The notes: generated by a model not told the origin, from the letters alone. Positions 39,914 through 60,881 are shown, numbered from the stretch's first letter. The stretch: 64,000 bases of DNA from an uncultured bacterium (GCA_965372355.1 CBDVBZ010000004.1:5119-69118); one strand, 5' to 3'. Program-made: numbers and translations.

Positions 39914-39946
39914 AGTATACGTCCTCTATCTCCAGCCAATAAATGT

Positions 39947-41365: not shown

Positions 41366-41391
41366 GGCAATTCTGCCCGGACACTCCCGAT

Positions 41392-43789: not shown

Positions 43790-45925
43790 CTAAAGAGGCT
43801 GCTTGAGTCTCAGGCTGCGTTTTCTTCCCATTAGAATATTGCCAAACGTCACCACAAGGATCTTCACATCCCTGCCCAACGACCAATTCCTCGTGTAGCT
43901 GGCATCCTGTGCCAGAAGATCTTCCAGGGAGATCTCGTCGTAACGCCCGGCTCTCCACAGGCCGGTCACTCCCGGGCGAACGTCAAAACGAAAGCCCGCC
44001 TTGGAATCGAGCATATCCGCATGCGACGACGGCATCGGATACGGACCGACGATGCTCAGCTTTCCTGTGACCACCAACCAAAAGAGGGGCGAATTGACGA
44101 TATCAGAGGGGCCGTTCGAACTCCTTGCATCGGCTACCGGCAACATGAAGGCCTCACCACACAACCCAAGCCTTGACTCTCGAGAGAAAGGTGTCCTCCC
44201 GCGAATCGATGCATACATAAAGTATAACACGCTAAACGGCAGCGACACTACCAGAAAAACCACACCGATGCCGATATCAAGCAGTCGTTTACCCAGTTTG
44301 TCGATCGCATAACGCGTATCCCTGCGGTAGGCGATCGCCGGACGACCGGCCAGATCGGTCACCTCAGCCTGATGGATAACGAGTCCCGAGAAGTCCGCCA
44401 CAACAGTGACATCCAGAACCCGTTTGCGCCCCATGACGATGATATCCGTCATCCGGTCCTCCGGCACGGCTCCGGGCAGCAATATGAGTTCCTGAACGCG
44501 AAACCTGTCAACAATCTCACCGATCTCAGAGACATCACCCAGGCTCCGTTGATGCTCACCGTCGGTCGCCACAATACCCACAATGTCCAGACCGCTGGAG
44601 GCGCCCCCGCGGAGCTCCTGCTCGAGCGCTCTTGCCTCTGAAAGGGCTCCTACGATGCAGACCCTCTTGAGATCGAGCTTCTGAGCGAGCAGCGCCCGGT
44701 GAAAACGCCGCAGGAGCGACCGTAGCAGCCAGTCGTAAAGTATGGCGAACGGAACCAGGAACGCGACAACCAACCTCGAGTAGCTCTGAATCTGGCTCAG
44801 ATAGGTACTGGCCATGAGCAACACGGAGGAAAAGATCACTGCCCGGCCGATGGCGAAAAGCTCGTCCACCCGCGATGTGTCACGTCGGATTCTATACAGA
44901 CCCAGAACCAAGAACGTGAAAACAAAAAGGATGTTCTGGTAAATCGTAAACTTGTCGTACGCCTGAAGCGGGAACAGCGGCTTCGCAAGAAAATCTCCGA
45001 GCGCCAGCCTCGAATAGTACGCCGATAGGAACGCGAGGTTGAACGCGACAAGGTCAGCCCCGAGAAAGAGCGTGACCTTCAACACCTCTCTGTATTTCTT
45101 GAGCGCATAGAAAACGGCGTTCCACTTCTCGTAATAACGGATCAAGCTGGCAAGATGCGCCACAAAGGGCCGGTTGAGCACCGACTTTGCACTCTCGCGG
45201 GCATGGTCATGGACCACCACGGCCTCCGGGTGATAATAGACGTCCCAGCGCTTCTGCTTCATCCGGTAGCACCAGTCGACATCCTCGAAATACAGAAAGA
45301 ACCGCTCGTCCATCATCCCGACGGACTCCACCGCTTCGCGCCGAACAAGCATGCACGCTCCCAGCACCCAGTCAACCTTTGCCGTCGTCTCGTGATTAAA
45401 ATCCAACATGAGATGTTTGGAGATCACCGAGGAGTTTCTGAAGATCCTTCCGAGAGGTGTTCTTCGGAGAAGGAGAACTCTCCAGTTATAAAACCTGCGG
45501 CAGGAATACTGGAGGTTGCCGTCGTAGAAAACCAGCTTAGGAGCGACGATACCCGCATCCGGAGTTTTCTCCATGAACTGATAGAGCGTTCTTATCGAAT
45601 GCTCCCGGATAACCGTGTCGGGATTCAGAATCAGCAAGTATCTTCCACGAGCCCGTTGTATACCCAGATTCACGGCGACCGAAAAGCCGGCGTTTCTCGT
45701 ACCGGCACTGAGATCGACCCATGGATAACAGTCTTGCACCAACTGAGAAGTGCCGTCGGAACTCGCGTTGTCCACGACAATGACTTCCGTCCGGTCGAAC
45801 ATGCTCTGCTTTTTGAGTGAATCAAGGCAGAGCCCGAGAACCGAGCGGCTGTTGTGCGTGACAATAACGACTGAAACGTCCACGGTGGAATCAGTCTCTC
45901 TGAAAGGCATCACGGAGTGATTCAA
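43790..45925 (-). CDS. bifunctional GT2 glycosyltransferase fused to WbaP-type polyprenyl-phosphate glycosylphosphotransferase (PGT) domain
   Basis: N-terminal GT2 (VSVVIVTHNSRSVLGLCLDSL...VIVVDNASSDGT...DxD-type region). Middle TM helices plus a CoA-binding-like region (RVCIVGALSEARALEQEL...IVGIVA). C-terminal Bac_transf-like block LSIVGPYP...RPGVTGLWRAGRYDEISLEDLLAQDASYTRNWSLGRDVKIL. The canonical KFRSM and SLDELPQL motifs appear absent or altered. Confidence 0.8.
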   Translation of the reverse strand: MNHSVMPFRETDSTVDVSVVIVTHNSRSVLGLCLDSLKKQSMFDRTEVIVVDNASSDGTSQLVQDCYPWVDLSAGTRNAGFSVAVNLGIQRARGRYLLILNPDTVIREHSIRTLYQFMEKTPDAGIVAPKLVFYDGNLQYSCRRFYNWRVLLLRRTPLGRIFRNSSVISKHLMLDFNHETTAKVDWVLGACMLVRREAVESVGMMDERFFLYFEDVDWCYRMKQKRWDVYYHPEAVVVHDHARESAKSVLNRPFVAHLASLIRYYEKWNAVFYALKKYREVLKVTLFLGADLVAFNLAFLSAYYSRLALGDFLAKPLFPLQAYDKFTIYQNILFVFTFLVLGLYRIRRDTSRVDELFAIGRAVIFSSVLLMASTYLSQIQSYSRLVVAFLVPFAILYDWLLRSLLRRFHRALLAQKLDLKRVCIVGALSEARALEQELRGGASSGLDIVGIVATDGEHQRSLGDVSEIGEIVDRFRVQELILLPGAVPEDRMTDIIVMGRKRVLDVTVVADFSGLVIHQAEVTDLAGRPAIAYRRDTRYAIDKLGKRLLDIGIGVVFLVVSLPFSVLYFMYASIRGRTPFSRESRLGLCGEAFMLPVADARSSNGPSDIVNSPLFWLVVTGKLSIVGPYPMPSSHADMLDSKAGFRFDVRPGVTGLWRAGRYDEISLEDLLAQDASYTRNWSLGRDVKILVVTFGNILMGRKRSLRLKQPL

Positions 45926-46616
45926 AACGAAGCTTCCACACCAGAAAAACCGCTTCCCATACGATTCGACGAGACATCTTCGAGGCCCCGCTCGTTCTGT
46001 CCACGAAGATGATCGGAATTTCCTTGATCCGGAACTTCTTTCTCCAGACGTAATGGTTCACTTCGATTTGAAAGGAATAGCCGTCACTCTTGATCTCATC
46101 GAGGGGGAGGCTCTCGAGAACCTCTCGACGAAAGCACTTGAATCCGCCGGTGGCGTCTTTTAGCGGCATACCGGTGACGAACCGCGTATAGATGTTGGCC
46201 CCCACGCTCAGAAAGAGCCTCGATAGAGGCCAGTTCATCACGGTGATGCCGTCGAGATACCTCGAGCCTAGCACGAGGTCCGCGTCCTTGATCGCCTCGA
46301 GAAATTCGGGCAACGCACCGGGATCGTGCGAGAAATCAGCATCCATCTCGAACACAAACTGCACAGAAGTGTTCTGCAGCGCCCATTTGAACCCCGCGAT
46401 ATAGGCGCTGCCCAGGCCCAGCTTACTCGGGCGTCGCAGCACGTGCAGTCGGTCGTTCGTCTTGGTCAACTCGTCGACGCGATCGCCGGTGCCATCCGGA
46501 GAGTTATCGTCGACAACGAGAACGCCGATGTCGAAATTGAGGCTGAAAATCTTCTCAATGAGCGCATCGATGTTTTCGCGCTCATTGTATGTCGGAACGA
46601 TTACGAGCGTTTCCAA
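45891..46616 (-). CDS. polyprenol-phosphate mannose/glycose synthase, Dpm1/Ppm1-like GT2 (soluble form)
   Basis: METLVIVPTYNERENI...VLVVDDNSPDGT...FEMDADFSHDP. Classic Dpm1-family sequence with no TM helices. Confidence 0.85.
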   Translation of the reverse strand: METLVIVPTYNERENIDALIEKIFSLNFDIGVLVVDDNSPDGTGDRVDELTKTNDRLHVLRRPSKLGLGSAYIAGFKWALQNTSVQFVFEMDADFSHDPGALPEFLEAIKDADLVLGSRYLDGITVMNWPLSRLFLSVGANIYTRFVTGMPLKDATGGFKCFRREVLESLPLDEIKSDGYSFQIEVNHYVWRKKFRIKEIPIIFVDRTSGASKMSRRIVWEAVFLVWKLRFESLRDAFQRD

Positions 46617-49198
46617 ATCATTCTTCCCCGCAGGTTGAAGACAACGGCAAAAAGCAGTATGCCAAGGGCTGTGGCGAACGTGATAACCGACACCGCCAGC
46701 GATTTCTTTAGCAGCGACATGTCGTAACGAAACACGATGTCATGATCGCCGGCGGGCAGCGCCACCGCCCGCAGAACGTGGTTGGCACGGATGATCTCTC
46801 CGGGCTCACCATCCACCTCGACCTGCCAGCCCGGGTAATAAATCTCGCCCAACACCATCAGCGCCGGGGACGGCAACGACGCCTGCACCCGGATCTCGTT
46901 GAAACGGTACTCCGTTATCTCCGCCGTGGCACCCTCGCGGGACACCGGCTCGATAGACGGGGCCTTCTCGAGAAGCGCGGTCCGCGACACATCGAGGCGC
47001 CTGTCGGCCAGCAACGTCTGTAGGGCCTGCGAACCCGGGCGCACCTCGAACCGATCGACAAAGAACACACGCGGCAACGCGTGTGTGTTCTCATAGACGA
47101 ACTTCTCCCGGCCAGTGCGGTCCATCCCGCGCCACAGCATCTTGAAGACCGGGTCCTCGCCGAGCGGATTCGACGTGACCAGATACCGGACATTGAGCAT
47201 GTCTGCCATCCGATAGTCGTTTCTCTGAACCGCGATATCAAGAGCATCGATGAACTCCTTGTAGATCGACAGCTTGGCGGGTTGGTAGCCGCCTATCGAC
47301 GAGATTCCGAAGTTCATGTACCGGTTCGTCTCGAAATCACCAACAACAGGGCGAGACGGATGAAGCATCGGGAAGACGCGAAACCGGCCGCCCTGTTTCT
47401 GGAGAAACTCGACCACGGCGTCCGGCTCGAGCACCCTGTTCGAATCATCTACTGACCTTATTATGCTCATCTGCGGATTTCGAAACAGCTTCTCGGGATA
47501 AATGATGTGACGGTCCACGAGATAGATATCCAGCATCCCCACACCCAGTACCGCCAGCACCAGGGCCAGTGCGCCGATATGTCGTTTGAAAAAGGCCCAG
47601 ACCAGCGACGCGGTCACGAGGAACAGTACGGAGAACTTGACAAGATCCGTAAACAGGTGTCCCCCGACGATTCGTGCGAGCTCGAGCTGTTCCCTTACCG
47701 AGCGCACGTTTCGGATCCTGTCGGCTATCGATTCGGTGAATCCGCCCGTCCAGTAGCTGTACGTGACGAGAACAATCAGCAGAACGGCCGCCGCTGCGAT
47801 CGCCGCCCTGAGCGCAGAACGGCTGCCCCTTATGGGATCGTACTTGAGCGCAGCCGATAAACCGATCCCGCAGAGCAGAACCAGCCCGAGCTGCTGAACG
47901 ATCAACACCATAACAGGCACCCGGAACTTGTTGAAATACGGGAGGAACTTGAAGAGCGGGCCATAGAGCAGGGGAAGATGCTTGCCAAAGGCGACCAGGG
48001 TCGTCACGGCCACGACAAAGACGAGAAACCATGTGAAACGCGTTCGCGCGATAAGCACGGCGACGACGGCAAAGAATGCTACGATCACACCCACGTAGTT
48101 GGCGTAATCCGTAAAAGGCATGTGCCCGAAATAGTAAAATTTGCCAAACCCGAACGCGAACGGTACCAGAAAACTCAACGTTTCGGCGGGATGAAGACTC
48201 CAGTTGGTGGCGTAGTCATAGGTGAGCCCACCTCCACCCGCGGCACCGCGGATCGAGTACTGCGCGTAGTCGTGCACGGGCAGAAACAACACCGCGCTGA
48301 TACCCAGCGCTCCCAGAACGATGAGGGCCAAAACACCAACGGCACCTCCGACATCCACCAATGCCGCGCGTTTCGCCGACGAGGCTCCACGCTCGTAGGC
48401 ATCTTTCAGGAATCCGAACACCGGGGGATCGGCTGCGCTCACCCCGCGAAACGCGTCCTTGATCTTGAGCGTCCCGAAAAAGACCACATGCATACCGATC
48501 AACGCAAACGTGTAGTAGGAGATCTGAAGATGCGACCTCAAAAACTGAAATCCGAGCAGGACCGTAAGGGCGCTCGCGTTGAGCAGAACACCCTTACCTC
48601 TCCATAAACGATCCCAGAAGAACAAGGCAAACGGCATGTACCCCACCGCGCTTGCCTGGCTACCGTGACCGTTGGCCCCTACGGCGACTTGGTTGGGCAT
48701 CCACATCATCATGACCCCAACGCCTGCCGCTATGAGGAAATTGACCCCACGGCCGATCAGGATTAACCACACGCCGAGCCCCAAGAAGAAGATGTGGAAG
48801 AGAAGCCACGTGGTGTTGGGAAACTTGAGCTTTGTGATCAGAAAACCGGTGACTACCGTGATGGGATACACATGAGGGACGTAGGTCATGCTGCCGTAAC
48901 TCGGCATCCCCGAGAACAGGTGTGGGTTCCACTGAGGGTACTCGCCCTCACTCATTGCTTTTTTGATCGGAGTCGACAGACTGAGCGCCGACTCCACGTC
49001 ACCGGCCACGAAGAGCTTGTTCTCAAAAACGAGTTCCGGGTACAGCACGCATATGGCGGCGATGAGAATAAAGATCGAGATGAGTGCCTGGTGGACAACG
49101 GGAATGCTCGCAGGCAGACCACCTTTCGCGGACGGACGATGGTTGACGGCAGCCGCCTTCTTTTCTGCGGCCCCACCTCTCTTTTTCTTCCTTTTCGC
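46601..49198 (-). CDS. YfhO-family GT-C membrane glycosyltransferase
   Basis: Start at MAKRKKKRGG. ~13 N-terminal TM helices, a large extracytoplasmic domain, and a single terminal TM helix (LAVSVITFATALGILLFAVVF) match YfhO topology. It sits among GtrB/Dpm1-like genes. Confidence 0.7.
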   Translation of the reverse strand, partial: AKRKKKRGGAAEKKAAAVNHRPSAKGGLPASIPVVHQALISIFILIAAICVLYPELVFENKLFVAGDVESALSLSTPIKKAMSEGEYPQWNPHLFSGMPSYGSMTYVPHVYPITVVTGFLITKLKFPNTTWLLFHIFFLGLGVWLILIGRGVNFLIAAGVGVMMMWMPNQVAVGANGHGSQASAVGYMPFALFFWDRLWRGKGVLLNASALTVLLGFQFLRSHLQISYYTFALIGMHVVFFGTLKIKDAFRGVSAADPPVFGFLKDAYERGASSAKRAALVDVGGAVGVLALIVLGALGISAVLFLPVHDYAQYSIRGAAGGGGLTYDYATNWSLHPAETLSFLVPFAFGFGKFYYFGHMPFTDYANYVGVIVAFFAVVAVLIARTRFTWFLVFVVAVTTLVAFGKHLPLLYGPLFKFLPYFNKFRVPVMVLIVQQLGLVLLCGIGLSAALKYDPIRGSRSALRAAIAAAAVLLIVLVTYSYWTGGFTESIADRIRNVRSVREQLELARIVGGHLFTDLVKFSVLFLVTASLVWAFFKRHIGALALVLAVLGVGMLDIYLVDRHIIYPEKLFRNPQMSIIRSVDDSNRVLEPDAVVEFLQKQGGRFRVFPMLHPSRPVVGDFETNRYMNFGISSIGGYQPAKLSIYKEFIDALDIAVQRNDYRMADMLNVRYLVTSNPLGEDPVFKMLWRGMDRTGREKFVYENTHALPRVFFVDRFEVRPGSQALQTLLADRRLDVSRTALLEKAPSIEPVSREGATAEITEYRFNEIRVQASLPSPALMVLGEIYYPGWQVEVDGEPGEIIRANHVLRAVALPAGDHDIVFRYDMSLLKKSLAVSVITFATALGILLFAVVFNLRGRMIWKRS

Positions 49199-49278
49199 CA
49201 TAGAGTTGGATCCTTCCGATGATGGTACCACACCGTCATCGGGCCGTAAATCAAGGAATGTACGTGCTTTAACGCTCC

Positions 49279-50418
49279 TTACCCACGCGCCGGTTTCTCG
49301 GCCAGGCCGCACAGGATCTCCCGACATCGCCCCCAGGAAAACCGGTGTTTCGCCTTCGCGATCCCGTCTTGCAACCGTTGCGCAGTACCATCGCGGAAGA
49401 ACTCGAGCATCGCCCCGCTCAGAGCATCCGGGTCACCCGGTGTCACGACGTAACCCGACACTCCATCCTCTACGACATCGGGTAATCCACCGACCCGCGT
49501 GACGACAACCGGCCTGTCGAATCCGAACGCTATCTGCACGATTCCGCTCTGCGTCGCGGAGAGATACGGCAGCACCACAACATCGGCGGCCACGAAGTAT
49601 TTCTCGACTTCCTCGTTCGGCACATACTGGTCCACCATCCGCACGCGGTCTCCGATCCCCAGACCCTCGATCTCGCTGACGTACGGCTGCCTGTCCTCGT
49701 AGAATTCGCCGACGATCATCAGCGTGGCCTCGATCTGCTGAATGGTTTTGGCGAAGGCCTGAATTAAAACCCGGAGACCTTTATAGGGGCGGATCAGTCC
49801 AAAAAAGAGAATGACCCGACCATCGACTCCAATCTCCCGGCGCGCCGTTTCCCTCGTATGCCGGCCTTTGTTGAATATGTCATAGATCGGATGTGGATGG
49901 ACATCCACGACGGCACCCTTTTTTATGCTTAGGAGGTTGCGACGATCCTCCTGCGATTGGACGAGGAAACGGCTGACCTGAGAGAACCCCAACCGGATCA
50001 GAACCGTGTCGATCAACGATTTCTCGTGGGGCAACACGTTGTGACACAAAAAGGCGACTCTCCGCTTCAGCGATCCGCCGAGAAGCAGAATGATCACGGC
50101 ATAGGCGACGGCAAAAAACGGATGCCACCACTGAAATACGATCAGATCGGGTCGATAAGATCTCATCGCTTGAGCGGCGCTCCAGAACGACAACGGATTC
50201 ATCGTGTCAATGAGACGCCTCGAGGGCACATCGAGCGGCTCACCACTCGTATCGAACTGCGTCTTGCCGGGGAATAGGAATGATGGATAGAGTCGTTTGA
50301 AATTCACCACCAGAACATCGTGGTGCTTACCAAACTCCTCTGCAAGCACGGATGTGAAGTGTGCGATCCCGCCGCGATACGGATAGACAGGTCCGACGAG
50401 ACAGACCTTTTTGATCAT
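49279..50418 (-). CDS. GT4 (group 1) glycosyltransferase
   Basis: MIKKVCLVGPVYPYRGGIAHF.... C-terminal EX7E-type region (LPYLSATQSGIVQIAFGFDRPVVVTRVGGLPDVV). Confidence 0.85.
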   Translation of the reverse strand: MIKKVCLVGPVYPYRGGIAHFTSVLAEEFGKHHDVLVVNFKRLYPSFLFPGKTQFDTSGEPLDVPSRRLIDTMNPLSFWSAAQAMRSYRPDLIVFQWWHPFFAVAYAVIILLLGGSLKRRVAFLCHNVLPHEKSLIDTVLIRLGFSQVSRFLVQSQEDRRNLLSIKKGAVVDVHPHPIYDIFNKGRHTRETARREIGVDGRVILFFGLIRPYKGLRVLIQAFAKTIQQIEATLMIVGEFYEDRQPYVSEIEGLGIGDRVRMVDQYVPNEEVEKYFVAADVVVLPYLSATQSGIVQIAFGFDRPVVVTRVGGLPDVVEDGVSGYVVTPGDPDALSGAMLEFFRDGTAQRLQDGIAKAKHRFSWGRCREILCGLAEKPARG

Positions 50419-51374
50419 GGCGCTTGCCCGCCTCCAAGGGGCAGCCCGGAGTCGTGCGTGAGGTGTTCGCGCAGGGTGTAGGTGGCTTCCTGGGCGCCGC
50501 GCGCCGTGATCAGCTCAGCGAGTAGCCCGATCGAGCCGATCTGAAGCGCCACGATGATCAGAACAAAACCCGCGAGCATGATCGGCCGAACCCTCAGGCC
50601 GACGCCACCAATGTACTGTATGAGAAAGATGATCTGAGGTATGGCTCCGATTACGAACAGAACGAATGCGATACGTCCAAAAAAATGAAGCGGTTTCAAC
50701 GCTCGTCGCGTGATGAACATCACTGTGACGAGGTCAAAGAACCCATTCAGAAAACGCTCGCCACCGTACTTGCTCCGACCGTACTTGCGTTTGAAATGCC
50801 GGACCTGGATCTCATCGACCTTGAACCCTTCCCAACCGGCCAGAACGGGTATAAAGCGATGCAGCTCTCCATACACCGCTATGGATCTAGCCACTTCCCC
50901 TCTGTAGGCCTTGAGTCCGCAGTTGAAATCGTGGAGGCGAAGACCGCTCATGACGGAAGTGACGAAATTGAAGAACTTGGACGGCAACCTCTTCGTCCAC
51001 GGATCTTGTCTATCCATTTTCCAACCCGACACCAGATCGGCGCCCTCGTGGAGCTTATTGATCAGCGCGGGTATCTCAGCGGGGTCGTCCTGAAGATCCG
51101 CATCCATCGTGATGATGATATCGCCCGTGGCCTCCTTGAATCCCACCGACAGCGCGGCCGATTTGCCGTGATTGCGTCTAAAGCTCAGGACTTTGACCTT
51201 GGGAGAACGCTCATAGAGATCGCGCAGAATGAGGAGTGACTTATCCACGCTGCCATCGTCGACAAAGATATACTCGTAGTCCACCCCGATGCCTGTCATC
51301 ACGGATTCGAGGCTTTCGAACAGCTCAGGGAGGCTTTCTTCCTCGTTGTAGAGCGGGATCACCACGGATATCAT
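50415..51374 (-). CDS. polyprenyl-phosphate glycosyltransferase, GtrB/ArnC-like GT2 with C-terminal TM anchors
   Basis: MISVVIPLYNEEESL...FVDDGSVDKS...ITMDADLQDDP, then two C-terminal TM helices (FVLFVIGAIPQIIFLIQYIGG, IMLAGFVLIIVALQIGSIGLLAELI). Confidence 0.85.
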   Translation of the reverse strand: MISVVIPLYNEEESLPELFESLESVMTGIGVDYEYIFVDDGSVDKSLLILRDLYERSPKVKVLSFRRNHGKSAALSVGFKEATGDIIITMDADLQDDPAEIPALINKLHEGADLVSGWKMDRQDPWTKRLPSKFFNFVTSVMSGLRLHDFNCGLKAYRGEVARSIAVYGELHRFIPVLAGWEGFKVDEIQVRHFKRKYGRSKYGGERFLNGFFDLVTVMFITRRALKPLHFFGRIAFVLFVIGAIPQIIFLIQYIGGVGLRVRPIMLAGFVLIIVALQIGSIGLLAELITARGAQEATYTLREHLTHDSGLPLGGGQAP

Positions 51375-51383
51375 TTCGACCTC

Positions 51384-52340
51384 CTAATCACCGATCAATC
51401 GCTTGAGTGTGGCCTGCAGCCACTCCGTCTCCATCGCGAGGCCTTCCTCCACCGTCGTCTTTGGCGCGTATCCAAGCTCCCCCCTGGCCAGACTGATGTC
51501 GGCATACGTGTGAGTGACATCCCCTTTTGCCCGGTCTTCGTATCGCACGTCCAGACCCGTGGGAAGTATTCCGGAGATGATGTCGAGCGCGGCATTCAAT
51601 GCGATCCGTGTGCCACCCCCCACATTGAAAACGCTCTCTTCCCCATCGTATTCCATGGCGAGCGTACAAGCCTCAACGATATCGGAAACGAACGTGAAAT
51701 CCCTCGTCTGAGTACCATTGCCAAAAACCGTAACCGGTTGTTCGTCCAGACCGGCTCGGATAAACCGATGAAACGCCATATCGGGTCGTTGTCTGGGCCC
51801 AAACACGGTGAAGAACCTCAGAGCCACCACCGGCAATCCGAAGTTGCTCCGGTACAGCAGGCAAAGCGCCTCGCCGGAGAGCTTGGTAACACCGTATGGG
51901 GAGACGGGGCACGTCGGATGGGTCTCGGACATGGGAAGCTCCTGGGTCTCCCCATAGACTGAGCTCGAGCTCGCATACACAAAACGTCTGACACCCTTGT
52001 TTCGCGCCGCCTCGCACAGTCGCTGAGTCGCCCGTATATTGGCGTCGACATAGCTGTCGAACAGGCTGTCCCAACTGTCCCTTACACCGGCCCACGCCGC
52101 GAGATGAAAGACGTAGTCGACTCCCTCGAGAATGCCGTCGAGATCGAGTTCGTTGAGATCGCCCTCGATCAGCGAGAAACCCTTCTTCTTCTCAAGACTG
52201 TTGAGATTCTCTCGTTTGAACCGGACATCGTAGTTCGCGCAGAGCGAATCGACACCGACGACGTCGAGGTCCTTTGCCAACAACGCCTCAGTGAGATGCG
52301 AGCCGATAAACCCTGCAGCACCGGTTACGAGCGTTTTCAT
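51384..52340 (-). CDS. NAD-dependent nucleotide-sugar epimerase/dehydratase (SDR family)
   Basis: MKTLVTGAAGFIGSHL Rossmann motif. Catalytic YASSSSVYG...Y/K context. 318 aa. Confidence 0.85.
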   Translation of the reverse strand: MKTLVTGAAGFIGSHLTEALLAKDLDVVGVDSLCANYDVRFKRENLNSLEKKKGFSLIEGDLNELDLDGILEGVDYVFHLAAWAGVRDSWDSLFDSYVDANIRATQRLCEAARNKGVRRFVYASSSSVYGETQELPMSETHPTCPVSPYGVTKLSGEALCLLYRSNFGLPVVALRFFTVFGPRQRPDMAFHRFIRAGLDEQPVTVFGNGTQTRDFTFVSDIVEACTLAMEYDGEESVFNVGGGTRIALNAALDIISGILPTGLDVRYEDRAKGDVTHTYADISLARGELGYAPKTTVEEGLAMETEWLQATLKRLIGD

Positions 52341-52390
52341 AGGCGTCCATATTCGCCGATTGCGCCGCCGCGACGCCGGCCTGACTCAGG

Positions 52391-54919
52391 TTACTGGTTC
52401 TCTGGAACCGAATCTTGCGTCTGTGTGCTGCGATCCAGGAGCTTCTGTCTGGATCTTATCATCGAATCGTCGTTGGGGTGACGCGCGATCCAGTTGTCGA
52501 CAAAGCGCAGCGCCCGGTCAACGCGATTGTACCGCATGCATATCGCTGTTGCGCTCACAACCGCGTCTCTGTGGTCGGGACAGTACTCTATCATCGCCTC
52601 TATCGTGGCAAGCACTCCTTGAAAATCCTCGATCCGCTCCTGCACACCCGCGAGACGATAGCGCACGTCGCAATCGTAGGGATCCTCTTCGATCTTGTCT
52701 CGGTAGTACTGTACTGCTCGGGTCGTGTCACCGCTCTCGAGGTAGTACCAGCCCAGCCACATCACAACGGGCGTCAAACCCGGCGAGATCTGCTCGGCCG
52801 CCTCCAGGTTCTTGATTGCCGCTTCGTAATCCTGTGCGCGGTATTGCATAAAACCGAGCTGGGTAAACGCTGCCGCATAGTTCTGAACCAGGCGATGCAC
52901 AAATGGCGGGTGATAAATCGATTCATCCCGCTGGTAGTCCTCGTCGAGCAGCCCCAGATAGCTGTAGTTCTGCCAGACGTTCTCTTCGAGTTTTGCAAGA
53001 TTGACCATGTTCTGCCCCTTGCGGGGAACAACACGGTAGGCCAACCCCTCCATCTCGAGGAACTCACGGTAGGGCTTGTAAATATTCGGTGGGATCGTGA
53101 CGGCAAAGTAGATCGGCTTCTTGTTGCTGTTGTATTTGAGGATGTGCTGCACGCCAATATCCCTGACGAGGATCCAGCTGCCGTCCTTGGTTTTGATCGG
53201 GCCCAAACGCGCGAGCTCGGCATCGGTCCAACGAATATTCACCTTTGGCTCATTGTCCCTCAGCTGCTTTATGTACCACGGCGTGTTTAGAAGGCTCAGG
53301 TTTACCACACGCACATCGGCGCGGTACTTCTCGACCTCCTGGATATACCAAAGTGGAAACGTGTCATTGTCACCGTTTGTAAAGATGATCCCATCTCGGT
53401 CCAGTCCCACCAGCATGTTCTTCGCGTACTCGCTGCATACGAAGTCGGCGGAGCGGTCGTGCTGAAAGAAGTGAGCCCGAAGCGTGAACGCTGGAAGAAC
53501 CAGAAATATAACGGCGGGCACGACAGCGGATGCCATACCGGTAACACCGACGCGAGATGCGAGACGCCGAATCTCGGACAGCAGGCTCGCCGCTCCGATC
53601 GCGATGAAAACGGCGAAATAGTAGAACGCGGGCAGATAGAAGTAGTCTCGCTCACGAACCTCCGCGTCGGAGAAGTTGAGATAAACGATCATGCCGAGGC
53701 TCGTCACCAGGAATGTCGCAAACAGTATGACAAATGTCTTCCGGTGCTTTGCATAGTGATCCACCATACCCCAGATACCCAGCGCCAGCGGGATCACCGA
53801 CCCGATATTCAGTCTACCAAGATAGACGGTCGCCATCTTGAACTGATCCTGGAGGTATTCGTTGAAATGCTGGAGCTGAAACCCAAAAAACGAGGATTTG
53901 CGCTCAAAGACGTTTGGCGGCGGGTACTGTTCGCGCCTGAGCACCGCATACAAACCGCGCCAGGTTTCCGGGTCCGCCTCGTCGATGGCGGGGTTGTGCC
54001 CCGAGCGAATCTTGAGATACAGGTGCACCGAAATCCCGAGAATGAAGAGCGCGCTGCAAATGATGGCGAATTTTGATTTGGACTGTGCGAAAAAGACCGC
54101 CAGCGCGACCACGAAGAGCGCGATGAGGGTAAGTGTGATCTGACCGTTCCTGTAGAGCGTCGCGTCGGCCACAAAGATCGCCACGCCCGCGCAGGCAAGC
54201 AAAAACTGCGTATTGCTGAACGACTTCTCCTTCGTCATCAGGATGACCAGGAAAACCCCCGAGAATGCCAGAATCGTTCCCAGGTGAAGACCGACGGTCA
54301 GCGCGAGCAGATAGAACAGAAGATAGACATATGAGACCGATTTCGGTCCCGTCGGGTTGTCCGCCCATTTGAGGGCCAGCCACGTCATGAAACCCATCAC
54401 GAACACGCTCATCGCGTACACTTCGGATTCCGTCGAATTCGCCCAGTACGTGTGACTGAACGTTAGGAAGAGCGCGCCCACCGTCGCCCCGGCCACCCTG
54501 ATCAAGGCGTCTGCCGCCGTGGCGCACCTCCCCATCATGTAGTCGAGGAAGCGAATCGCCAGCAGATACACCATCAGCACGCCGAGGCTGCCGGCAACCA
54601 CCGATATGAAGTTCACCTTACCGGCGATCGAAAACGGCAGTGGAAGCATCGTAAACACCCTCCCCACTAGGACATAGAGCGGCGTCCCGGGTGAGTGTGG
54701 CACACCGAGTGTGTACGCGCTGGCAATAAACTCGCCGGCATCCCAGAATGGCGCGCTGGGAGCCATGGTTCTCATATAGAGAAACAGGCTGAGCACGGCC
54801 GTAAACACAGCCCCGACAAGGAAATACACCCGAACAACGGGGTCCGCCGGCGCCGGCCTGGGTTGTGGCTCGGCCCTGGGGGCCGGCCGCGGTTTCGTTG
54901 ATTTCTGCTTTTTTGCCAT
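52391..54919 (-). CDS. GT-C-fold glycosyltransferase-like membrane protein (DUF2723/TMEM260-type) fused to C-terminal TPR repeats
   Basis: N-terminus ...SAPFWDAGEFIASAYTLGVPHSPGTPLY (first-loop acidic motif plus HPPG-like block) and ~11 TM helices. The C-terminal ~250 aa are TPR units (YEAAIKNLEAAEQISPGL..., RAVQYYRDKIEEDPYD...). Confidence 0.7.
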   Translation of the reverse strand: MAKKQKSTKPRPAPRAEPQPRPAPADPVVRVYFLVGAVFTAVLSLFLYMRTMAPSAPFWDAGEFIASAYTLGVPHSPGTPLYVLVGRVFTMLPLPFSIAGKVNFISVVAGSLGVLMVYLLAIRFLDYMMGRCATAADALIRVAGATVGALFLTFSHTYWANSTESEVYAMSVFVMGFMTWLALKWADNPTGPKSVSYVYLLFYLLALTVGLHLGTILAFSGVFLVILMTKEKSFSNTQFLLACAGVAIFVADATLYRNGQITLTLIALFVVALAVFFAQSKSKFAIICSALFILGISVHLYLKIRSGHNPAIDEADPETWRGLYAVLRREQYPPPNVFERKSSFFGFQLQHFNEYLQDQFKMATVYLGRLNIGSVIPLALGIWGMVDHYAKHRKTFVILFATFLVTSLGMIVYLNFSDAEVRERDYFYLPAFYYFAVFIAIGAASLLSEIRRLASRVGVTGMASAVVPAVIFLVLPAFTLRAHFFQHDRSADFVCSEYAKNMLVGLDRDGIIFTNGDNDTFPLWYIQEVEKYRADVRVVNLSLLNTPWYIKQLRDNEPKVNIRWTDAELARLGPIKTKDGSWILVRDIGVQHILKYNSNKKPIYFAVTIPPNIYKPYREFLEMEGLAYRVVPRKGQNMVNLAKLEENVWQNYSYLGLLDEDYQRDESIYHPPFVHRLVQNYAAAFTQLGFMQYRAQDYEAAIKNLEAAEQISPGLTPVVMWLGWYYLESGDTTRAVQYYRDKIEEDPYDCDVRYRLAGVQERIEDFQGVLATIEAMIEYCPDHRDAVVSATAICMRYNRVDRALRFVDNWIARHPNDDSMIRSRQKLLDRSTQTQDSVPENQ

Positions 54920-55044: not shown

Positions 55045-56034
55045 CTAAATGGTGGAGGCATCGGCCCTTGGGTTGGACATCTCGCGCCTACGGGCTAAAA
55101 AGAACGCAAAACCGAGCAGACTAATCGAGACCGAGATCAGATAGGTCAGGAATTCTATCGCGAACGCATCGGTCCGTCCGATCCCTGCCTGCGCAAAGAG
55201 CAAGATTCCCAACCCCTCCCTGACACCAAGCCCGTTTATCGTGATCGGGGGTATCATGGCCAGACCCAGCACCGGCACAAAGACGAAAAACAACCCAAAG
55301 ACCACGGCGTCGATCGGCACACCCAGCGCGACCGCCGCGAGAACGTGCGTCATGACCCGGAGGAACTGGATGACCAGCGACAGGAGAATCAGCCTCAGAA
55401 CGAGCCACCGCCTGCTCTTGAACTCACTCAGGCCATCGAATATCCATCCCGCCCGTTTGTCGACCGACAACGGGCGAATCAGACCCACGAGCCGTCTCAG
55501 AAGTGTGCCCAGTGGCTTGATGAAATAGAAGCCCACCAACGGCATCATGCATCCGAGAAACACAATCAGGTAGACGGCTACGGTCCCGCCCGGCCAGAAC
55601 GCCGTGCTCAGCAACACGGCCGCAACGGCCAACAGACAGAGGCTGAAAATCCCGATAAAGCGATCCATCAGTGTGACCGCCGTCACCCGATAGACGTTGC
55701 TGCCTATTCGGCTGACATCGTAGATCTTCATCGCGTCCCCGCCGATATTCGCCGGCAGGAAGTTGTTGAAAAACAACCCCACGAAATAGAAGCGAAACGA
55801 TTGCGGAAAAGTCAGTCGAACGCCCGATGCGACCAGAAGGAAATGCCACTGGAGTGCGCCGAGGACGTTACTCACAAAGAAGACGAGGATGGCAAGCGCC
55901 ACGGTGGCTCGATCGAGGGTCCGCACGAGGGCGAACAGATCCTCGAGCGATATCTTGCTGACGAGAAAAATCAAGAGCCCGGCGCTTACCAGGAGCTTGA
56001 CCAGGAGCTTTGCTAACGGACCGGGCGCCTTCAT
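55045..56034 (-). CDS. LPG_synthase_TM/UPF0104-type flippase-like integral membrane protein
   Basis: Start at MKAPGPLAKLLV (ATGA overlap with the upstream GT4 stop). 8 TM helices with a conserved ...FFNNFLPANIGGDAMKIYDV... block. The 93-aa Arg/Gly-rich extension in the ORF track is rejected. Confidence 0.65.
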   Translation of the reverse strand: MKAPGPLAKLLVKLLVSAGLLIFLVSKISLEDLFALVRTLDRATVALAILVFFVSNVLGALQWHFLLVASGVRLTFPQSFRFYFVGLFFNNFLPANIGGDAMKIYDVSRIGSNVYRVTAVTLMDRFIGIFSLCLLAVAAVLLSTAFWPGGTVAVYLIVFLGCMMPLVGFYFIKPLGTLLRRLVGLIRPLSVDKRAGWIFDGLSEFKSRRWLVLRLILLSLVIQFLRVMTHVLAAVALGVPIDAVVFGLFFVFVPVLGLAMIPPITINGLGVREGLGILLFAQAGIGRTDAFAIEFLTYLISVSISLLGFAFFLARRREMSNPRADASTI

Positions 56035-57149
56035 CCAGCGGACCCAATCTGACCGAGAAAGACACGCTCCATTTCCGCGGCCGTCCGGTCCCACGTCAAC
56101 GATCCCGCCCATTGGACCGCCTTGCCGCTCATCTCCTGCCACTTGTGCTTGTCCCTGAGCAACTCGAGAGATTTCTCGGCAAACGCCCGATCGTCTCCGT
56201 ACTCCACCAGATAACCGGTCTCCCCGTCCTTGACGGAGTCTTGAAGCCCCGGACGGTTGCTCGCGACGACAGGGACGCCACAGGCGTTGGCCTCGACGAC
56301 GGTGAGTCCCCAACCCTCCTTTGGGCTCGCGTTGAGAAAGAGATGCGCCTGGTTAAGCACCGCCACCAGTTCGTTCGTCTTTACCACACCGAGGAATTTT
56401 ACCGAGGTGTTCAAACCCATCTTCTCCACCAGATCGACGAGCTCGTCCACCCCCGGTCCGCCGCCAATGATAAACAGCCGGGCGTTTGGCAGCTGTTCCC
56501 GGATCCGCGCGAAGGCCTTTATCACGACATCGATCGACTTGTATTTTCGGATTCGCCCAAAGTGAACGATGGTCGGATCCGAATACCGGTCGAGACCCTC
56601 GATCCGCCTGTACGTGTCGTGATCGAGTCCGCACAGGACAACATCGATGCGCTCCGCCGCGATGCCCCGCCTAATCAGGTCTTCCTTCGTACTCGGGCTG
56701 ATTACGGCGAACTGACAGTTTTTGTAAACCGCAGGTATCAGTCGTTCCCATAGATAGACGTAGCTCGCAAGCACGGCATTCGTCTCGCGGTAGATCGTGG
56801 TGCCGAACAGATGCGGGATAACGGGAAGCACCCGGGTGCGTGTCAGTGCGGGTAGAAAAAACGGGATCTTGTTTATGTCCTCGATGATGAGATCGACTGG
56901 GTTCCGTTTGATAAATGACCTGACGTGAAACGGCAGAACGAAGTTCGCGTTGTACCAGCTGCCCTTCCTGATAACACGGATACCATCGCACAAATCCGTC
57001 TCCTCACAACCCGGGAATCCGGTCGCGAACATTGTCACCTCGTGACCGTTCTTGACCATCCGCGTGAGGATTTCGTGGAGATGGACTTCGGCTCCGCCGG
57101 CATCCGGGTTCTTGAGGTCCCGCCAGTTCACAGCTACAAATTTTGCCAA
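56031..57149 (-). CDS. GT4 (group 1) glycosyltransferase
   Basis: MAKFVAVNWRDLKNPDAGGAEVHLHEILTRMVKNGHEVTMF.... C-terminal EX7E region GLTVVEANACGVPVVASNRPGLQDSV. Confidence 0.85.
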   Translation of the reverse strand: MAKFVAVNWRDLKNPDAGGAEVHLHEILTRMVKNGHEVTMFATGFPGCEETDLCDGIRVIRKGSWYNANFVLPFHVRSFIKRNPVDLIIEDINKIPFFLPALTRTRVLPVIPHLFGTTIYRETNAVLASYVYLWERLIPAVYKNCQFAVISPSTKEDLIRRGIAAERIDVVLCGLDHDTYRRIEGLDRYSDPTIVHFGRIRKYKSIDVVIKAFARIREQLPNARLFIIGGGPGVDELVDLVEKMGLNTSVKFLGVVKTNELVAVLNQAHLFLNASPKEGWGLTVVEANACGVPVVASNRPGLQDSVKDGETGYLVEYGDDRAFAEKSLELLRDKHKWQEMSGKAVQWAGSLTWDRTAAEMERVFLGQIGSAG

Positions 57150-57161: not shown

Positions 57162-57920
57162 CTATTTCTTGATCGCGATACAGCCAATGACCATGGCCGT
57201 ATTCGTGCGTAGTTTCTCCGGCACAGCCGATTTGACCGTTCCGTGAAGGCCTTGGAACCAACGGGGTTTCAACGGGTACATCGGCATCCGCAGACCGGTC
57301 TTGAGCAGGATTCGCCGAATCCCCCGGTACCATATCGGCGGCGACGGGTTGTGTCCATAGACCCCCACAACCTGCATACCGCGCTCCTCCACCAGGCGGC
57401 ACAGCTGTGCCACCGAGAATTCGGTCTCCCAACCGGCGAACCACCGGCCCAGAAAAATCAGAATGTGTTTCAAAACGGTGTAATAATGATAACGCTGCGG
57501 CACATCGACGAGGAGCACACCACCCCTTTTCAACACCCGTACGTGATCGTCCAGCATATCGCCCGGGTTGCGGAAGTGCTCCAGCAGTCCCTGGTGAAAC
57601 ACAACGTCGAGCGACTCATCCAAAAACGGGAGATCGAACGCGTCGCCGCACACGATTCGTACGTTGTGCCGCACCGAGCGGCTCATCAGTGTTAGCGACT
57701 TCTCGCTGTAGTCCAGCGCATAGGTGATCGCGTCCTGCGACGCGATTTTGTCCGCGTCACGTCCTGTTCCCGCGCCGACCTCGAGAACTTTTCGCCCGGC
57801 CAGATCCATGTACTTTGTCAGGTTCTCGACGATTCGGTCATCGGTACCGTATACATCCTCGAGATCGCTGGAGGCTTCCCAGAAGTCATCCCAATGCTTT
57901 TTCTCTGAGGAACGTTTCAT
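57162..57920 (-). CDS. class I SAM-dependent methyltransferase
   Basis: Motif I VLEVGAGTGRD. Post-I acidic ALDYSE. Motif II/III ...VVFHQGLLEHF...LKRGGVLLV. Confidence 0.8.
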   Translation of the reverse strand: MKRSSEKKHWDDFWEASSDLEDVYGTDDRIVENLTKYMDLAGRKVLEVGAGTGRDADKIASQDAITYALDYSEKSLTLMSRSVRHNVRIVCGDAFDLPFLDESLDVVFHQGLLEHFRNPGDMLDDHVRVLKRGGVLLVDVPQRYHYYTVLKHILIFLGRWFAGWETEFSVAQLCRLVEERGMQVVGVYGHNPSPPIWYRGIRRILLKTGLRMPMYPLKPRWFQGLHGTVKSAVPEKLRTNTAMVIGCIAIKK

Positions 57921-57938: not shown

Positions 57939-58670
57939 CTAGTAGCCGCGTCGCAATCGGTCCGCCAGCATGGGAGGCAGCCCCGCATCGAGGATTTTTG
58001 CCGCGGCCCGATCTACATCATACTCGACCCTGTGTATGTTGATTGATTTTGATTCGCTGTCGTAGACAACGTAGGCAGACCGCGCGTCTCCATCCCGTGG
58101 CTGACCCACGCTGCCGACGTTTACCATGATCTTCTTGTTCGCGTTGACCCTGACGCTATCCTCGGGAGCCAGCGGGACCACGGAACCGTTGTCAGTGTGT
58201 ACGGCTGGGAAATGGGTATGTCCAATAAAGGCAAGTGTCGGTTTCATCGCGTGAAATGCGTCTGCCGCTTCCAGAGGCTCGACGACGTAGACCCATGCCT
58301 CCGGTCTGAAAGGCGACGAATGCACAGCCACGAACTCCGAGTCGACATCAATCAGCATTGGTAACGTTCGCAGATACTCCCGTCCGTTCTCCGTGAGGTT
58401 GGCCTCGCTGTAAAGAATCCCCGCCCTCGCCACGGGGTTGAACATCTCCCGCTGTGACGGATCGATCACCGCCGCGTCGTGATTGCCCAACACGGCCCGA
58501 GCCCCGGGAAGCGAGACAAACTTTTCCACACACTCACTCGGGTTGGCACCATATCCAACAAAATCGCCCAGACAGATTATCTCGTCGACGTTCCTTTCCA
58601 TCGCGTCGGAAAGTACCGAGGTTAGCGCCTCGAGGTTGCTGTGAATGTCGGATATGATCAAGTATCTCAA
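57939..58670 (-). CDS. metallophosphoesterase (calcineurin-like, YfcE/MJ0936-type)
   Basis: MRYLIISDIHSNLEAL...ICLGDFVGYG...GNHD...GHTH metal-ligand motifs. Confidence 0.8.
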   Translation of the reverse strand: MRYLIISDIHSNLEALTSVLSDAMERNVDEIICLGDFVGYGANPSECVEKFVSLPGARAVLGNHDAAVIDPSQREMFNPVARAGILYSEANLTENGREYLRTLPMLIDVDSEFVAVHSSPFRPEAWVYVVEPLEAADAFHAMKPTLAFIGHTHFPAVHTDNGSVVPLAPEDSVRVNANKKIMVNVGSVGQPRDGDARSAYVVYDSESKSINIHRVEYDVDRAAAKILDAGLPPMLADRLRRGY

Positions 58671-59104
58671 TTGGTGTCCTGCCTGAACATGTGCACGAAG
58701 TGGTCGAGCACTCCATTTACAAACTGTCCGGCGTCCCGCGAGCTGAAGGTGTGTGCGATCTCGATCGCCTCATTGATGATGACCTTCGACGGCACATCGG
58801 GGAAATACAGGATTTCGGCCAGAGCGAATCTGATGATGCTCTTGTCGATCAACGACACTCGCTCGAGGTCCCAGTTGATCAGCCCTTCGCGAATCTTCTC
58901 GTCTAGCTCCGCGAGGTGCTCCTGCGTTATTGTCAACAGGGCGCTTGCGTACTCGACCGTTTCCTGGCCCGAGGATCTTCGCTCCACCTGCTCCCCCAGG
59001 ATCTCCTCCCACGACAGATCCGAGAACTCCGCCTCGTAGAGCACCTGGAGAACGATCTCTCTCGCCCTTCTTCGCTTGCCCACTTTCACGCTCAGCCTTC
59101 CCAC
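58667..59104 (-). CDS. nusB: transcription antitermination factor NusB
   Basis: 145 aa. RRRAREIVLQVLYEAEF...NWDLERVSLIDKSIIRFALAEILY is typical NusB. Classic position downstream of ribH. Confidence 0.9.
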   Translation of the reverse strand: MGRLSVKVGKRRRAREIVLQVLYEAEFSDLSWEEILGEQVERRSSGQETVEYASALLTITQEHLAELDEKIREGLINWDLERVSLIDKSIIRFALAEILYFPDVPSKVIINEAIEIAHTFSSRDAGQFVNGVLDHFVHMFRQDTN

Positions 59105-59559
59105 AGGTTCATCATCTCGACCAGCGCGAGAGCGCTATCCCACCCCTTGTTGCCCTTCCTGCCACCGGCGCGAGCCATCGCCTGGTCTGTATTCTCGGCG
59201 GTTACCACTCCATACGTAACCGGGATAGAACAGCTGGATGAAACCTCGGCTATGGAGAATATCACCGAGTCGCAAAGGTTGTCGAAGTGATTGGTTTCAC
59301 CACGAATTATCGCTCCCAAACAGATCAGACCATCGTATTTCCCCGCGCTGCCGAGCTTGCGCGCCATCTGCGGCACCTCGAACGATCCCGGCACCCAATA
59401 TACATCAACGTCCGAAGAGTTGACGCCGTGTTTGATCACGCAGTCAACGGCGCTGTCGACGAGGCGTTTGGTTACGAAATCATTGAACCGCCCGGCTACG
59501 ATTGCAACTTTTTTATCCGCGCCGTTGAGATCGGCCTCATGGATGTTTGGCGCCACCAT
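59092..59559 (-). CDS. ribH: 6,7-dimethyl-8-ribityllumazine synthase
   Basis: 155 aa. KVAIVAGRFNDFVTKRL...VYWVPGSFEVP...GAIIRGETNHFD. Confidence 0.95.
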   Translation of the reverse strand: MVAPNIHEADLNGADKKVAIVAGRFNDFVTKRLVDSAVDCVIKHGVNSSDVDVYWVPGSFEVPQMARKLGSAGKYDGLICLGAIIRGETNHFDNLCDSVIFSIAEVSSSCSIPVTYGVVTAENTDQAMARAGGRKGNKGWDSALALVEMMNLWEG

Positions 59560-60806: not shown

Positions 60807-60881
60807 TCCACCTCTCTGTAGCACCAGCACCCGGCGGCTCTCTGTAGCATCCGCTGGCTCTCTGGGGATATCCACGGGATG

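Follow-up and report, generated by a model that had tools for sequence, protein, structure and literature searches.

A conserved gene array of an uncultured bacterium encodes a TMEM260-like glycosyltransferase and two putative lipid-phosphate-sugar modules

In a stretch of 64,000 nucleotides (nt) of DNA from an uncultured bacterium (GCA_965372355.1 CBDVBZ010000004.1:5119-69118; the whole of it is called the window here) the minus strand carries every credible gene between 28.8 and 62.7 kb, and the part from 45.9 to 54.9 kb holds an array of glycosylation genes, two of which encode membrane glycosyltransferases (GT) of the GT-C type. Read 5′ to 3′ on the minus strand, the order begins with ribD, ribE, ribBA, ribH and nusB and continues with genes for a metallophosphoesterase, a methyltransferase, a GT4 and a “flippase-like” membrane protein; there follow an 842-amino acid (aa) GT-C, an epimerase, an ArnC/GtrB-like GT2, another GT4, a YfhO-like GT-C and a small GT2, then a GT2-phosphoglycosyltransferase fusion, a PorZ-like protein of the type IX secretion system (T9SS), amino-sugar genes, a MOP flippase and a 518-aa membrane protein, and finally mraZ, mraW, ftsI and the remaining dcw cluster (Table 1). 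A sequence-only reading of the window had placed two polyprenyl-phosphate-sugar synthases within the array, one soluble and Dpm1-like, the other membrane-bound and GtrB/ArnC-like, with GT4 enzymes and an epimerase interleaved; the genes exist, on the minus strand and at or very near the positions given there, and both synthases (by Pfam and solved-structure matches) as well as the GT4s and the epimerase (by Pfam) were confirmed. For the comparison of gene order, the surroundings of relatives of the 842-aa protein were retrieved (80 loci) and compared with the proteins of the window.

Table 1. Genes of the array and of its vicinity, in minus-strand order; loci are those of the 80 fetched
Feature	Length (aa)	Coordinates	Strand	Basis or remark
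Riboflavin operon (ribD, ribE, ribBA, ribH) and nusB		57939-62700	-	runs into the array with 1-13-nt overlaps
Metallophosphoesterase	243	57939..58670	-	Metallophos_2 72.7 bits; syntenic in 26 loci
Class I S-adenosylmethionine-dependent methyltransferase	252	57162..57920	-	Methyltransf_11 71 bits; syntenic in 31 loci
GT4 (BshA/MshA-like, retaining type)	372	56031..57149	-	Glycos_transf_1 142.5 bits
MprF-type “flippase-like” membrane protein (LPG_synthase_TM)	~329 from ATG 56034	55045..56034	-	PF03706 127.4 bits
TMEM260-like (PF11028, formerly DUF2723) GT-C with tetratricopeptide repeats	842	52391..54919	-	Pfam, phmmer, AlphaFold model
Sugar-nucleotide 4-epimerase of the short-chain dehydrogenase/reductase (SDR) type	318	51384..52340	-	PF01370 206.9 bits
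ArnC/GtrB-like polyprenyl-phosphate sugar synthase (GT2)	319	50415..51374	-	PF00535 118 bits
GT4 glycosyltransferase	379	49279..50418	-	Glyco_trans_1_4, Glycos_transf_1
YfhO-type GT-C	866 from ATG 49201	46601..49201 (reading frame to 49327, 908 aa)	-	fold and relatives
Soluble DPMS/Dpm1-like GT2, putative polyprenyl-phosphate hexose synthase	241	45891..46616	-	PF00535 108 bits
GT2 fused to WbaP/WcaJ-type polyprenyl glycosylphosphotransferase	711	43790..45925	-	PF00535 88.6 bits, Bac_transf 74.1 bits, CoA_binding_3
PorZ-like protein	797	41392-43785	-	Reg_prop beta-propeller repeats, T9SS C-terminal sorting domain; directly downstream of the array
PglF/PseB-like 4,6-dehydratase, DegT/PseC-like aminotransferase, FemAB-family acyl/aminoacyl transferase, MOP-type flippase		36178-41500	-	tight ATGA-type overlaps
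Multi-pass membrane protein	518 (likely ~499 from GTG 36152)	34653..36209	-	possible GT-C; outside 45.9-54.9 kb
FtsI-type penicillin-binding protein (dcw cluster)		30304-32418	-	C-terminal PASTA domains
Lipid A acyltransferase		8805-9731

The 842-aa protein is, as judged from its sequence, a bacterial homologue of human TMEM260, a protein O-mannosyltransferase in which a GT-C membrane part is combined with tetratricopeptide repeats (TPR) (PMC10214176). Recognised in 2023 as a third human O-mannosyltransferase, TMEM260 had its structure reported in 2026 by cryo-electron microscopy (9RQL, 9RQM, 9RQN); in it the GT-C core is joined by a Rossmann-like domain of five strands and by the TPRs, with D52 and H67 binding the donor sugar, R264 and Y267 lying in a flexible donor-loading loop and D441 acting as the catalytic base (bioRxiv 10.64898/2026.03.17.711096). 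The family PF11028, now named “Protein O-mannosyl-transferase TMEM260-like” in Pfam, matches residues 60-232 of the 842-aa protein with 155.3 bits against a cut-off of 24.2, and TPR_19, TPR_14 and TPR_2 match within residues 682-757. A phmmer search of all PDB sequences aligned the protein with human TMEM260 in two stretches, 37-190 and 425-565 (E 3.6e-19); once the TPRs were removed human TMEM260 was the sole PDB match (E 1.5e-19), and the family profile detects it with E 1.6e-28. Three residues of the human active site have their equivalents: D60, H75 and D517 align with D52, H67 and D441 and are all invariant in 54 relatives, D517 being embedded in N-G-D-N-D as compared with R-G-D around D441, with the invariant G516 aligned to G440. 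An invariant R329-E-Q-Y332, which recalls the R-x-x-Y of the human flexible loop, occupies the one low-confidence loop of the AlphaFold model (pLDDT <50), and HMMER did not align it with the loop of R264 and Y267; R355 of the human transmembrane helix 10 aligns with Y426, and the invariant R424 is two residues off.

The model of the 842-aa protein (pLDDT 84.7) shows the same domain order as the human enzyme, that is, a membrane GT-C core (residues ~27-484), an alpha/beta “Rossmann-like” domain of five strands and flanking helices (~494-670) and about ten TPR helices (672-833); conservation, at 0.72-0.82 in the core, drops to 0.54 in the TPRs, which matches the trend published for the human family. 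As eight of the first 30 residues are Lys or Arg, the N-terminus would be cytoplasmic, an orientation that puts the loop of D60, and with it D517 as its partner in the active site, on the periplasmic side; a periplasmic location is likewise predicted for the alpha/beta and TPR domains. This topology is drawn from the positive-inside N-terminus and from homology, a simple hydropathy scan having given no reliable helix count for either GT-C. Differences from human TMEM260 are also evident: the window protein is bacterial, it has about ten TPR helices in place of five and probably more membrane helices, and its gene is adjoined by those of a UDP-glucuronate (UDP-GlcA) 4-epimerase-like protein and of an ArnC-like synthase, so that the donor may be undecaprenyl-phosphate galacturonate (Und-P-GalA) and not dolichol-phosphate mannose (Dol-P-Man).

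The suggestion of an acidic donor comes from the two genes that follow the TMEM260-like gene. Among solved proteins the epimerase is closest to the 6zl6 series (over its full length, with E 1.6e-76), which we take to be the Bacillus cereus UDP-glucuronate 4-epimerase, followed by MoeE5 (E 3.5e-65), an enzyme that the literature treats as being of the UDP-glucuronate 4-epimerase type. The protein is identical to the B. cereus enzyme at R185, T178, Y149 and K153, and has S-S-S in place of T126-S-S; in the B. cereus epimerase Arg185 and Thr178 grip the carboxylate of the substrate, and Tyr149 and Lys153 are catalytic (PMC12338863). By its relatives and by these residues the window enzyme resembles UDP-glucuronate 4-epimerases, and its product is likely UDP-galacturonate (UDP-GalA). 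The adjoining 319-aa GT2 matches over its full length both solved ArnC (9hwj; residues 2-289, E 1e-50) and solved GtrB (sll0501, 5ekp; E about 4e-35 to 6e-35); it carries two C-terminal membrane segments (235-253 and 267-285), and it is not an ArnC orthologue because its score stays below the ArnC equivalog cut-off. With an epimerase of the UDP-GlcA type standing beside an ArnC-like synthase, the lipid donor may be Und-P-GalA. The start of the 379-aa GT4 gene, syntenic in 26 loci, lies over the stop of the ArnC-like gene in a 4-nt ATGA, read directly at the junction, and to this extent the overlaps described earlier for the array were found; the other one, of the YfhO-type gene with this GT4 gene, was not, as a 77-nt gap separates the two when the former starts at ATG 49201.

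That start is the most likely one for the YfhO-type protein because a database protein, P0001, is 100% identical to it, comprises 866 aa and begins at Met43 of the 908-aa open reading frame (ORF); the position assumed before, 49198, was off by 3 nt, and the long start (to 49327) was rejected, since relatives and the geometry of the junction favour 49201. The product of the ORF stands as a YfhO-type GT-C on the strength of its relatives and its predicted fold. Of the Pfam families which had been put forward for a check by hidden Markov models (HMM), PF11028 was recovered in the 842-aa protein, PF13231 (PMT_2) neither in that protein nor in the one at 34653, and PF09586 (YfhO) matched the present protein with 24.7 bits, under the cut-off of 28.5 and over its C-terminal 60 residues only. 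The sequence-only call of a YfhO-type enzyme nevertheless holds despite this score: PF09586 is matched by 50 of 52 aligned relatives (E <= 0.01, best 6.2e-11), some of them named “YfhO family protein” by NCBI, and in Foldseek the AlphaFold model (pLDDT 85.2) finds ArnT (5f15, E 2.7e-5) as well as AftD and STT3, with a probability of 1.0. A search of PDB sequences with the profile of the family returned nothing significant, so that the comparison of folds alone is informative here. An aspartate after the first membrane helix (D68, numbered from M43) is invariant among the relatives, and a large extracytoplasmic beta-rich domain (~570-826) precedes the last membrane helix.

The small GT2 gene next to it begins with a TTG that overlaps the stop of the YfhO-type gene by 16 nt, as read directly at the junction. 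The best solved relative of its 241-aa product is the dolichol-phosphate mannose synthase (DPMS) of Pyrococcus furiosus (5mlz; E 1.9e-35, residues 2-229), of which it has the catalytic domain only, and a hydropathy scan found no membrane or hydrophobic segment in it; by this relationship its product would most plausibly be a polyprenyl-phosphate hexose such as mannose.

The grouping of these genes is not due to chance, an explanation which was rejected because 48 of the 80 loci, which belong to several candidate phyla of the Fibrobacterota-Chlorobiota-Bacteroidota (FCB) group, have at least one cluster neighbour in common with the window, at identities of the TMEM260-like protein between 31% and 72%. 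The full order from ribD to the GT2-phosphoglycosyltransferase fusion is present in many loci, among whose sources are Krumholzibacteriota, Latescibacterota and Eisenbacteria, with a few others. Of 61 loci with sufficient downstream sequence, 33 have the epimerase gene after the TMEM260-like gene, and in 31 of these 33 the ArnC-like gene comes next; the flippase-like gene is found directly upstream in 32 of 62 loci with sufficient upstream sequence. Where about 10 kb of downstream sequence was available (21 loci), 11 loci had the YfhO-like gene together with the DPMS-like one and seven had neither, and the GT2 was never present without YfhO. By this co-variation two modules can be distinguished, one made up of the TMEM260-like protein, the epimerase and the ArnC-like synthase, the other of the YfhO-like and DPMS-like proteins.

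Variants of the array were also observed. The TMEM260-like gene is duplicated in tandem in nine of the 80 loci (L009-L012, L016, L046, L048, L057, L068), and the copies may be paralogues of different acceptor or donor specificity. In an Eisenbacteria locus (L033:14321-22255) the ArnC-like gene is followed by two inserted genes, one for a sugar-1-phosphate nucleotidyltransferase and one for a GHMP kinase, and the YfhO/DPMS-like pair is replaced by a membrane protein of 571 aa whose match to Alg9/GT22 is weak, together with a GT2, a methyltransferase and a MOP flippase.

Taken together, we read the locus as a vertically conserved envelope-glycosylation array, in which two periplasmic modules that use lipid-phosphate sugars stand beside genes for the assembly of a glycan linked to undecaprenyl diphosphate (Und-PP); we put the probability of this reading at roughly 0.55. 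In the first module the epimerase would supply a UDP-sugar, probably UDP-GalA, whose sugar the ArnC/GtrB-like GT2 would load onto undecaprenyl phosphate at the cytoplasmic face; the lipid-linked sugar would then be flipped, for which the adjacent MprF-type protein is a candidate, and be used in the periplasm by the TMEM260-like GT-C. By analogy to the human enzyme, the core with D60 and H75 would bind the donor, the TPR domain would hold an extended polypeptide and D517 would activate the hydroxyl group of a Ser or Thr. In the second module the soluble DPMS-like GT2 would make a polyprenyl-phosphate hexose, most likely with mannose, and the translationally coupled YfhO-type GT-C would transfer the hexose to a glycan or protein acceptor. 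The fusion protein and the two GT4s would build a glycan, which may be that acceptor or may be transferred separately. A polypeptide acceptor is favoured for the TMEM260-like enzyme because it retains both the TPRs and, within its alpha/beta domain, the Asp that serves as catalytic base, and by this analogy it probably acts on proteins, as a protein O-glycosyltransferase. The fuller proposal, that it is a true bacterial protein O-glycosyltransferase which modifies secreted or outer-membrane proteins while these, still unfolded, enter the periplasm, with an Und-P-sugar (possibly galacturonate) provided by the two adjacent genes, is tentative, and we regard it as well short of an even chance. 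What the analysis shows are the identities of the genes, their folds, the conserved catalytic residues, the synteny and the co-variation of the modules; the acceptors most of all, but also the sugars, the flippase and the topology, we infer.

Several observations weigh against this reading. The acceptor sequon proposed for TMEM260, an enzyme that in humans modifies Ser or Thr of IPT domains, is G-P-x-x-G/A-G-G-x-x-T/S; its matches were only out-of-frame or due to chance, both in the window, read in all six frames, and in the 1.3 Mb of the 80 loci, and a search of the six frames of the window for Ser/Thr-rich stretches likewise gave no candidate acceptor. The asparagine ladder of the human TPR domain is not evident in the 842-aa protein, only N680 being conserved, and the domains of the model were compared with the published description of human TMEM260. 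TMEM260 uses Dol-P-Man from a DPM1-type enzyme, and YfhO-type enzymes pair with GtrB/CsbB-type synthases; the pairing in the array is the reverse, and for this reason the assignment of the modules rests only on adjacency and co-variation. The NCBIfam scores of the 319-aa GT2 are low, with 183.7 bits for ArnC (cut-off 529) and 144.7 for PgfS (cut-off 500), and no GtrA flippase (PF04138) was found among the genes scanned, the intergenic gaps being too small for a small gene of this kind. In Gemmatimonadota, Balneolaceae and some other groups the TMEM260-like genes stand alone, and those of the first two groups, lacking glycosylation neighbours, give no hint of function. One of them, from a Balneolaceae genome (CP030887.1, L069:9965-12955), encodes a 996-aa protein with a PF11028 match of 222 bits and no TPRs detectable by Pfam, which means that the C-terminal domain is not uniform in the family; its neighbours encode MsrB, an SNF transporter and a subtilase.

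In the three-component systems, GtrA/GtrB/GtrX, ArnC/ArnE-F/ArnT, CsbB/GtcA/YfhO and RgtE with RgtA-D and RgtF, a cytoplasmic GT2 charges polyprenyl phosphate with a sugar which, once flipped, is transferred by a GT-C at the outer face, as is proposed here; CsbB/GtcA/YfhO glycosylates lipoteichoic acid (LTA) (PMC5836110), and rhizobial RgtE makes bactoprenyl-phosphate GalA for the GT-C transferases RgtD and RgtF (PMC7663294), a parallel that extends to the donor if the assignment of the epimerase holds. Unlike these systems, the window lacks a flippase of the GtrA or ArnE/F type and has an MprF-type flippase-like protein in the adjacent position, one of its GT-Cs carries a peptide-binding TPR domain, and two modules stand together in a single array whose conservation extends beyond one phylum. 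Modelled on RgtA-F with RgtE, on O-antigen modification of the Gtr type, on CsbB/YfhO and LTA, and on the mycobacterial lipomannan pathway of Ppm1, GT4 enzymes (PimA/B) and GT-Cs is the alternative in which the GT-Cs add single GalA or hexose residues to lipid A or the core of lipopolysaccharide (LPS), to an O-antigen-like polymer or to a lipoglycan, and not to proteins. The host is a diderm that makes lipid A and encodes a lipid A acyltransferase, GalA as suggested by the epimerase is found classically on LPS, to which Rgt enzymes add it, and a phosphoglycosyltransferase, two GT4s and a nearby MOP flippase with amino-sugar genes are typical of surface-polysaccharide loci; the downstream end of the array differs among lineages as it does in glycan loci (the GT22-like GT-C and sugar-activation genes of Eisenbacteria), and the best-studied role of YfhO is the glycosylation of teichoic acid (PMC5836110). 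On the other hand, the TMEM260-like enzyme keeps the Asp which in its human counterpart deprotonates the Thr of the peptide, and it keeps the C-terminal, peptide-binding TPRs, which known GT-Cs that modify glycans, such as ArnT, Rgt and GtrX, lack; moreover, the array has a core that does not vary from phylum to phylum, which sets it apart from genes for serotype-type modifications. We consider an acceptor other than protein for the GT-Cs possible but, on balance, rather doubtful. The actinobacterial systems, both the protein O-mannosylation by Ppm1/Pmt and the lipomannan pathway of Ppm1, PimA/B and GT-Cs, are similar in that a soluble Dpm1-like polyprenyl-phosphate-mannose synthase (Ppm1) feeds GT-Cs and GT4s take part, but the array has no GT39 (PMT), YfhO and TMEM260 are the families of its GT-Cs, and it comes from an unrelated lineage.

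A precedent for the main reading, which the array resembles in its set of parts, is given by the streptococcal systems PgfS/PgfE/PgfM1/PgfM2 and GtrB/PgtC2, in which protein O-glycosylation involves GT-Cs of the YfhO type and takes place outside the membrane on Ser or Thr of secreted and membrane proteins (PMC11092751). They likewise combine a GtrB-type GT2, a 4-epimerase and two GT-Cs, at least one of the YfhO type, and the only specific NCBIfam matches of the window GT2 and of the YfhO-like protein, weak as they are, are PgfS and PgfM1. These scores are far under the equivalog cut-offs (for PgfS as given above, for PgfM1 19.6 vs 1400), and the array differs further in that its second GT-C is of the TMEM260 family, its epimerase is UDP-GlcA-like and not of the UDP-N-acetylhexosamine type, its host is a diderm and a second synthase, of the DPMS type, is present.

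A different part for the YfhO-type GT-C, that of an O-oligosaccharyltransferase which would transfer en bloc an Und-PP-oligosaccharide begun by the fusion protein and extended by the GT4s, is unlikely to our mind, though not exclusive of a glycolipid or polysaccharide as the acceptor of the array; in that case the TMEM260-like enzyme or later trimming steps would be all that both lipid-phosphate-sugar synthases supply. For Bacteroidota a preprint of 2026 makes the prediction that YfhO is the oligosaccharyltransferase long missing from their general O-glycosylation system (10.64898/2026.07.27.740950), the YfhO-like gene of the window is two genes away from the initiating phosphoglycosyltransferase and beside GT4s, and the fold matches of its product include oligosaccharyltransferases of the STT3 type. 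Yet the 16-nt overlap and the co-variation with the DPMS-like synthase point to a lipid-monophosphate-sugar donor, the YfhO-type enzymes studied by experiment all use Und-P-monosaccharides, the role in Bacteroidota is itself a prediction and, with its 24.7 bits, the YfhO of the window is divergent. Finally, membership of the 842-aa protein in the TMTC group (GT105, PMT clan), as a counterpart of the eukaryotic cadherin O-mannosyltransferases, is very improbable: the sequence-only reading was right about the architecture, as TMTC1-4, which use a lipid-phosphate-mannose donor and a protein acceptor, too have a GT-C followed by lumenal TPRs, but there is no match to PMT_2 (PF13231) or DUF1736 at E <= 0.01 and no detectable sequence relation, the TPR-less protein matches TMEM260 alone among solved proteins, and the alpha/beta domain with the catalytic Asp between membrane core and TPRs, absent from TMTCs, is the layout of TMEM260. 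The idea of a “eukaryote-like GT-C + TPR” protein survives under a better namesake, since TMEM260 itself is a GT-C and TPR protein O-mannosyltransferase.

The remaining genes of the array fit an envelope locus to different degrees. The GT2-phosphoglycosyltransferase fusion, for which the start is ambiguous (45925, 45910 or 45883), scores 181 bits with TIGR03025, below the cut-off, and by its domains would initiate an Und-PP-linked glycan. At the other end the flippase-like protein exceeds the cut-off of TIGR00374 with 78 bits; as a flippase for the lipid-linked sugar it is a candidate by guess. With the ATG at 56034 its gene overlaps that of the upstream GT4 by a 4-nt ATGA and its length fits that of the relatives; a TTG at 56313 (ORF 55045-56313) was rejected as the start, since it would cause an overlap of 283 nt with the GT4 and relatives favour 56034, and what looks in some loci like a conserved N-terminal extension probably stems from the conservation of the GT4 gene that it overlaps. 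This GT4, a conserved neighbour of the flippase-like gene, scores 131 bits with BshA and 125 bits with MshA, both below cut-off. The metallophosphoesterase gene sits between nusB and the glycosylation genes. The junction of the rib/nusB genes with the glycosylation genes is kept across phyla, an unusual linkage of housekeeping and envelope functions. A scan for promoters and terminators (43-62.9 kb) gave counts equal to those in shuffled sequence and is thus uninformative on operon boundaries, and two plus-strand ORFs, 34593-36329 (578 aa) and 52415-53290 (291 aa), were rejected as shadow ORFs antisense to conserved minus-strand genes, as is typical of DNA rich in G+C.

Downstream of the array, the 797-aa protein reaches 102.7 bits with the family of the “anionic LPS delivery protein” PorZ (cut-off 260), and its gene is syntenic in the five closest loci only. 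The run of genes that follows looks, from the families encoded, like a pathway for a modified amino sugar; such a run beside a PorZ-like gene recalls the Wbp/Vim linking-sugar pathway by which T9SS cargo is attached in Porphyromonas. For the multi-pass membrane protein at 34653, which the sequence-only reading had counted as a third, ArnT-like GT-C, the gene proved to be real and conserved (233 relatives were found) and the family assignment weakly supported: the protein has no Pfam match of its own, PMT_2 is matched by seven of 39 relatives (best 9.6e-8), and the family profile aligns with AftB (9dlf) on an invariant DD in the first loop at a weak E of 0.033.

The nearest relatives of the 842-aa protein, with identities up to about 70%, are from metagenome-assembled genomes of Krumholzibacteriota and Latescibacterota, and the host is a bacterium of this type. 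It is a diderm of the FCB group, as the window encodes a lipid A acyltransferase and also T9SS sorting domains. The FtsI-type protein of its dcw cluster ends in PASTA domains, which are commoner in Gram-positives than in diderms with lipid A genes.

Membership in the family is already known from public annotation, where relatives appear as “DUF2723 domain-containing protein” or “protein O-mannosyl-transferase family”. New are the conserved array and the way in which it divides into two modules, the correspondence of residues with the catalytic machinery of the human enzyme, and the hint of a galacturonate donor. The bacterial relatives of TMEM260 are common, the family comprising about 1,300 clusters (50% identity, E <= 1e-30), yet the literature holds one sentence on them, the mention of “distant homologs in bacteria” in the discovery paper of 2023, and no characterised bacterial member was found in the searchable literature. 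The array gives them a concrete and conserved genetic context, with a dedicated epimerase, a lipid-sugar synthase and a candidate flippase, and with catalytic residues identified; from it testable predictions on donor and mechanism can be made, and it suggests that bacterial TMEM260-like enzymes may use an acidic sugar. A YfhO-type GT-C beside glycan-assembly genes in a diderm of the FCB group also bears on the proposal of a missing O-oligosaccharyltransferase in Bacteroidota. Should the acceptor be LPS or a polysaccharide, the finding would shrink to a lineage-specific locus for the decoration of the envelope. If the TMEM260-like enzyme is indeed a protein O-glycosyltransferase, the array would be the first defined prokaryotic pathway of the TMEM260 type and a plausible evolutionary source of TMEM260 O-mannosylation in metazoa, and the YfhO-like GT-C would represent a second, independent arm of protein or glycan glycosylation.

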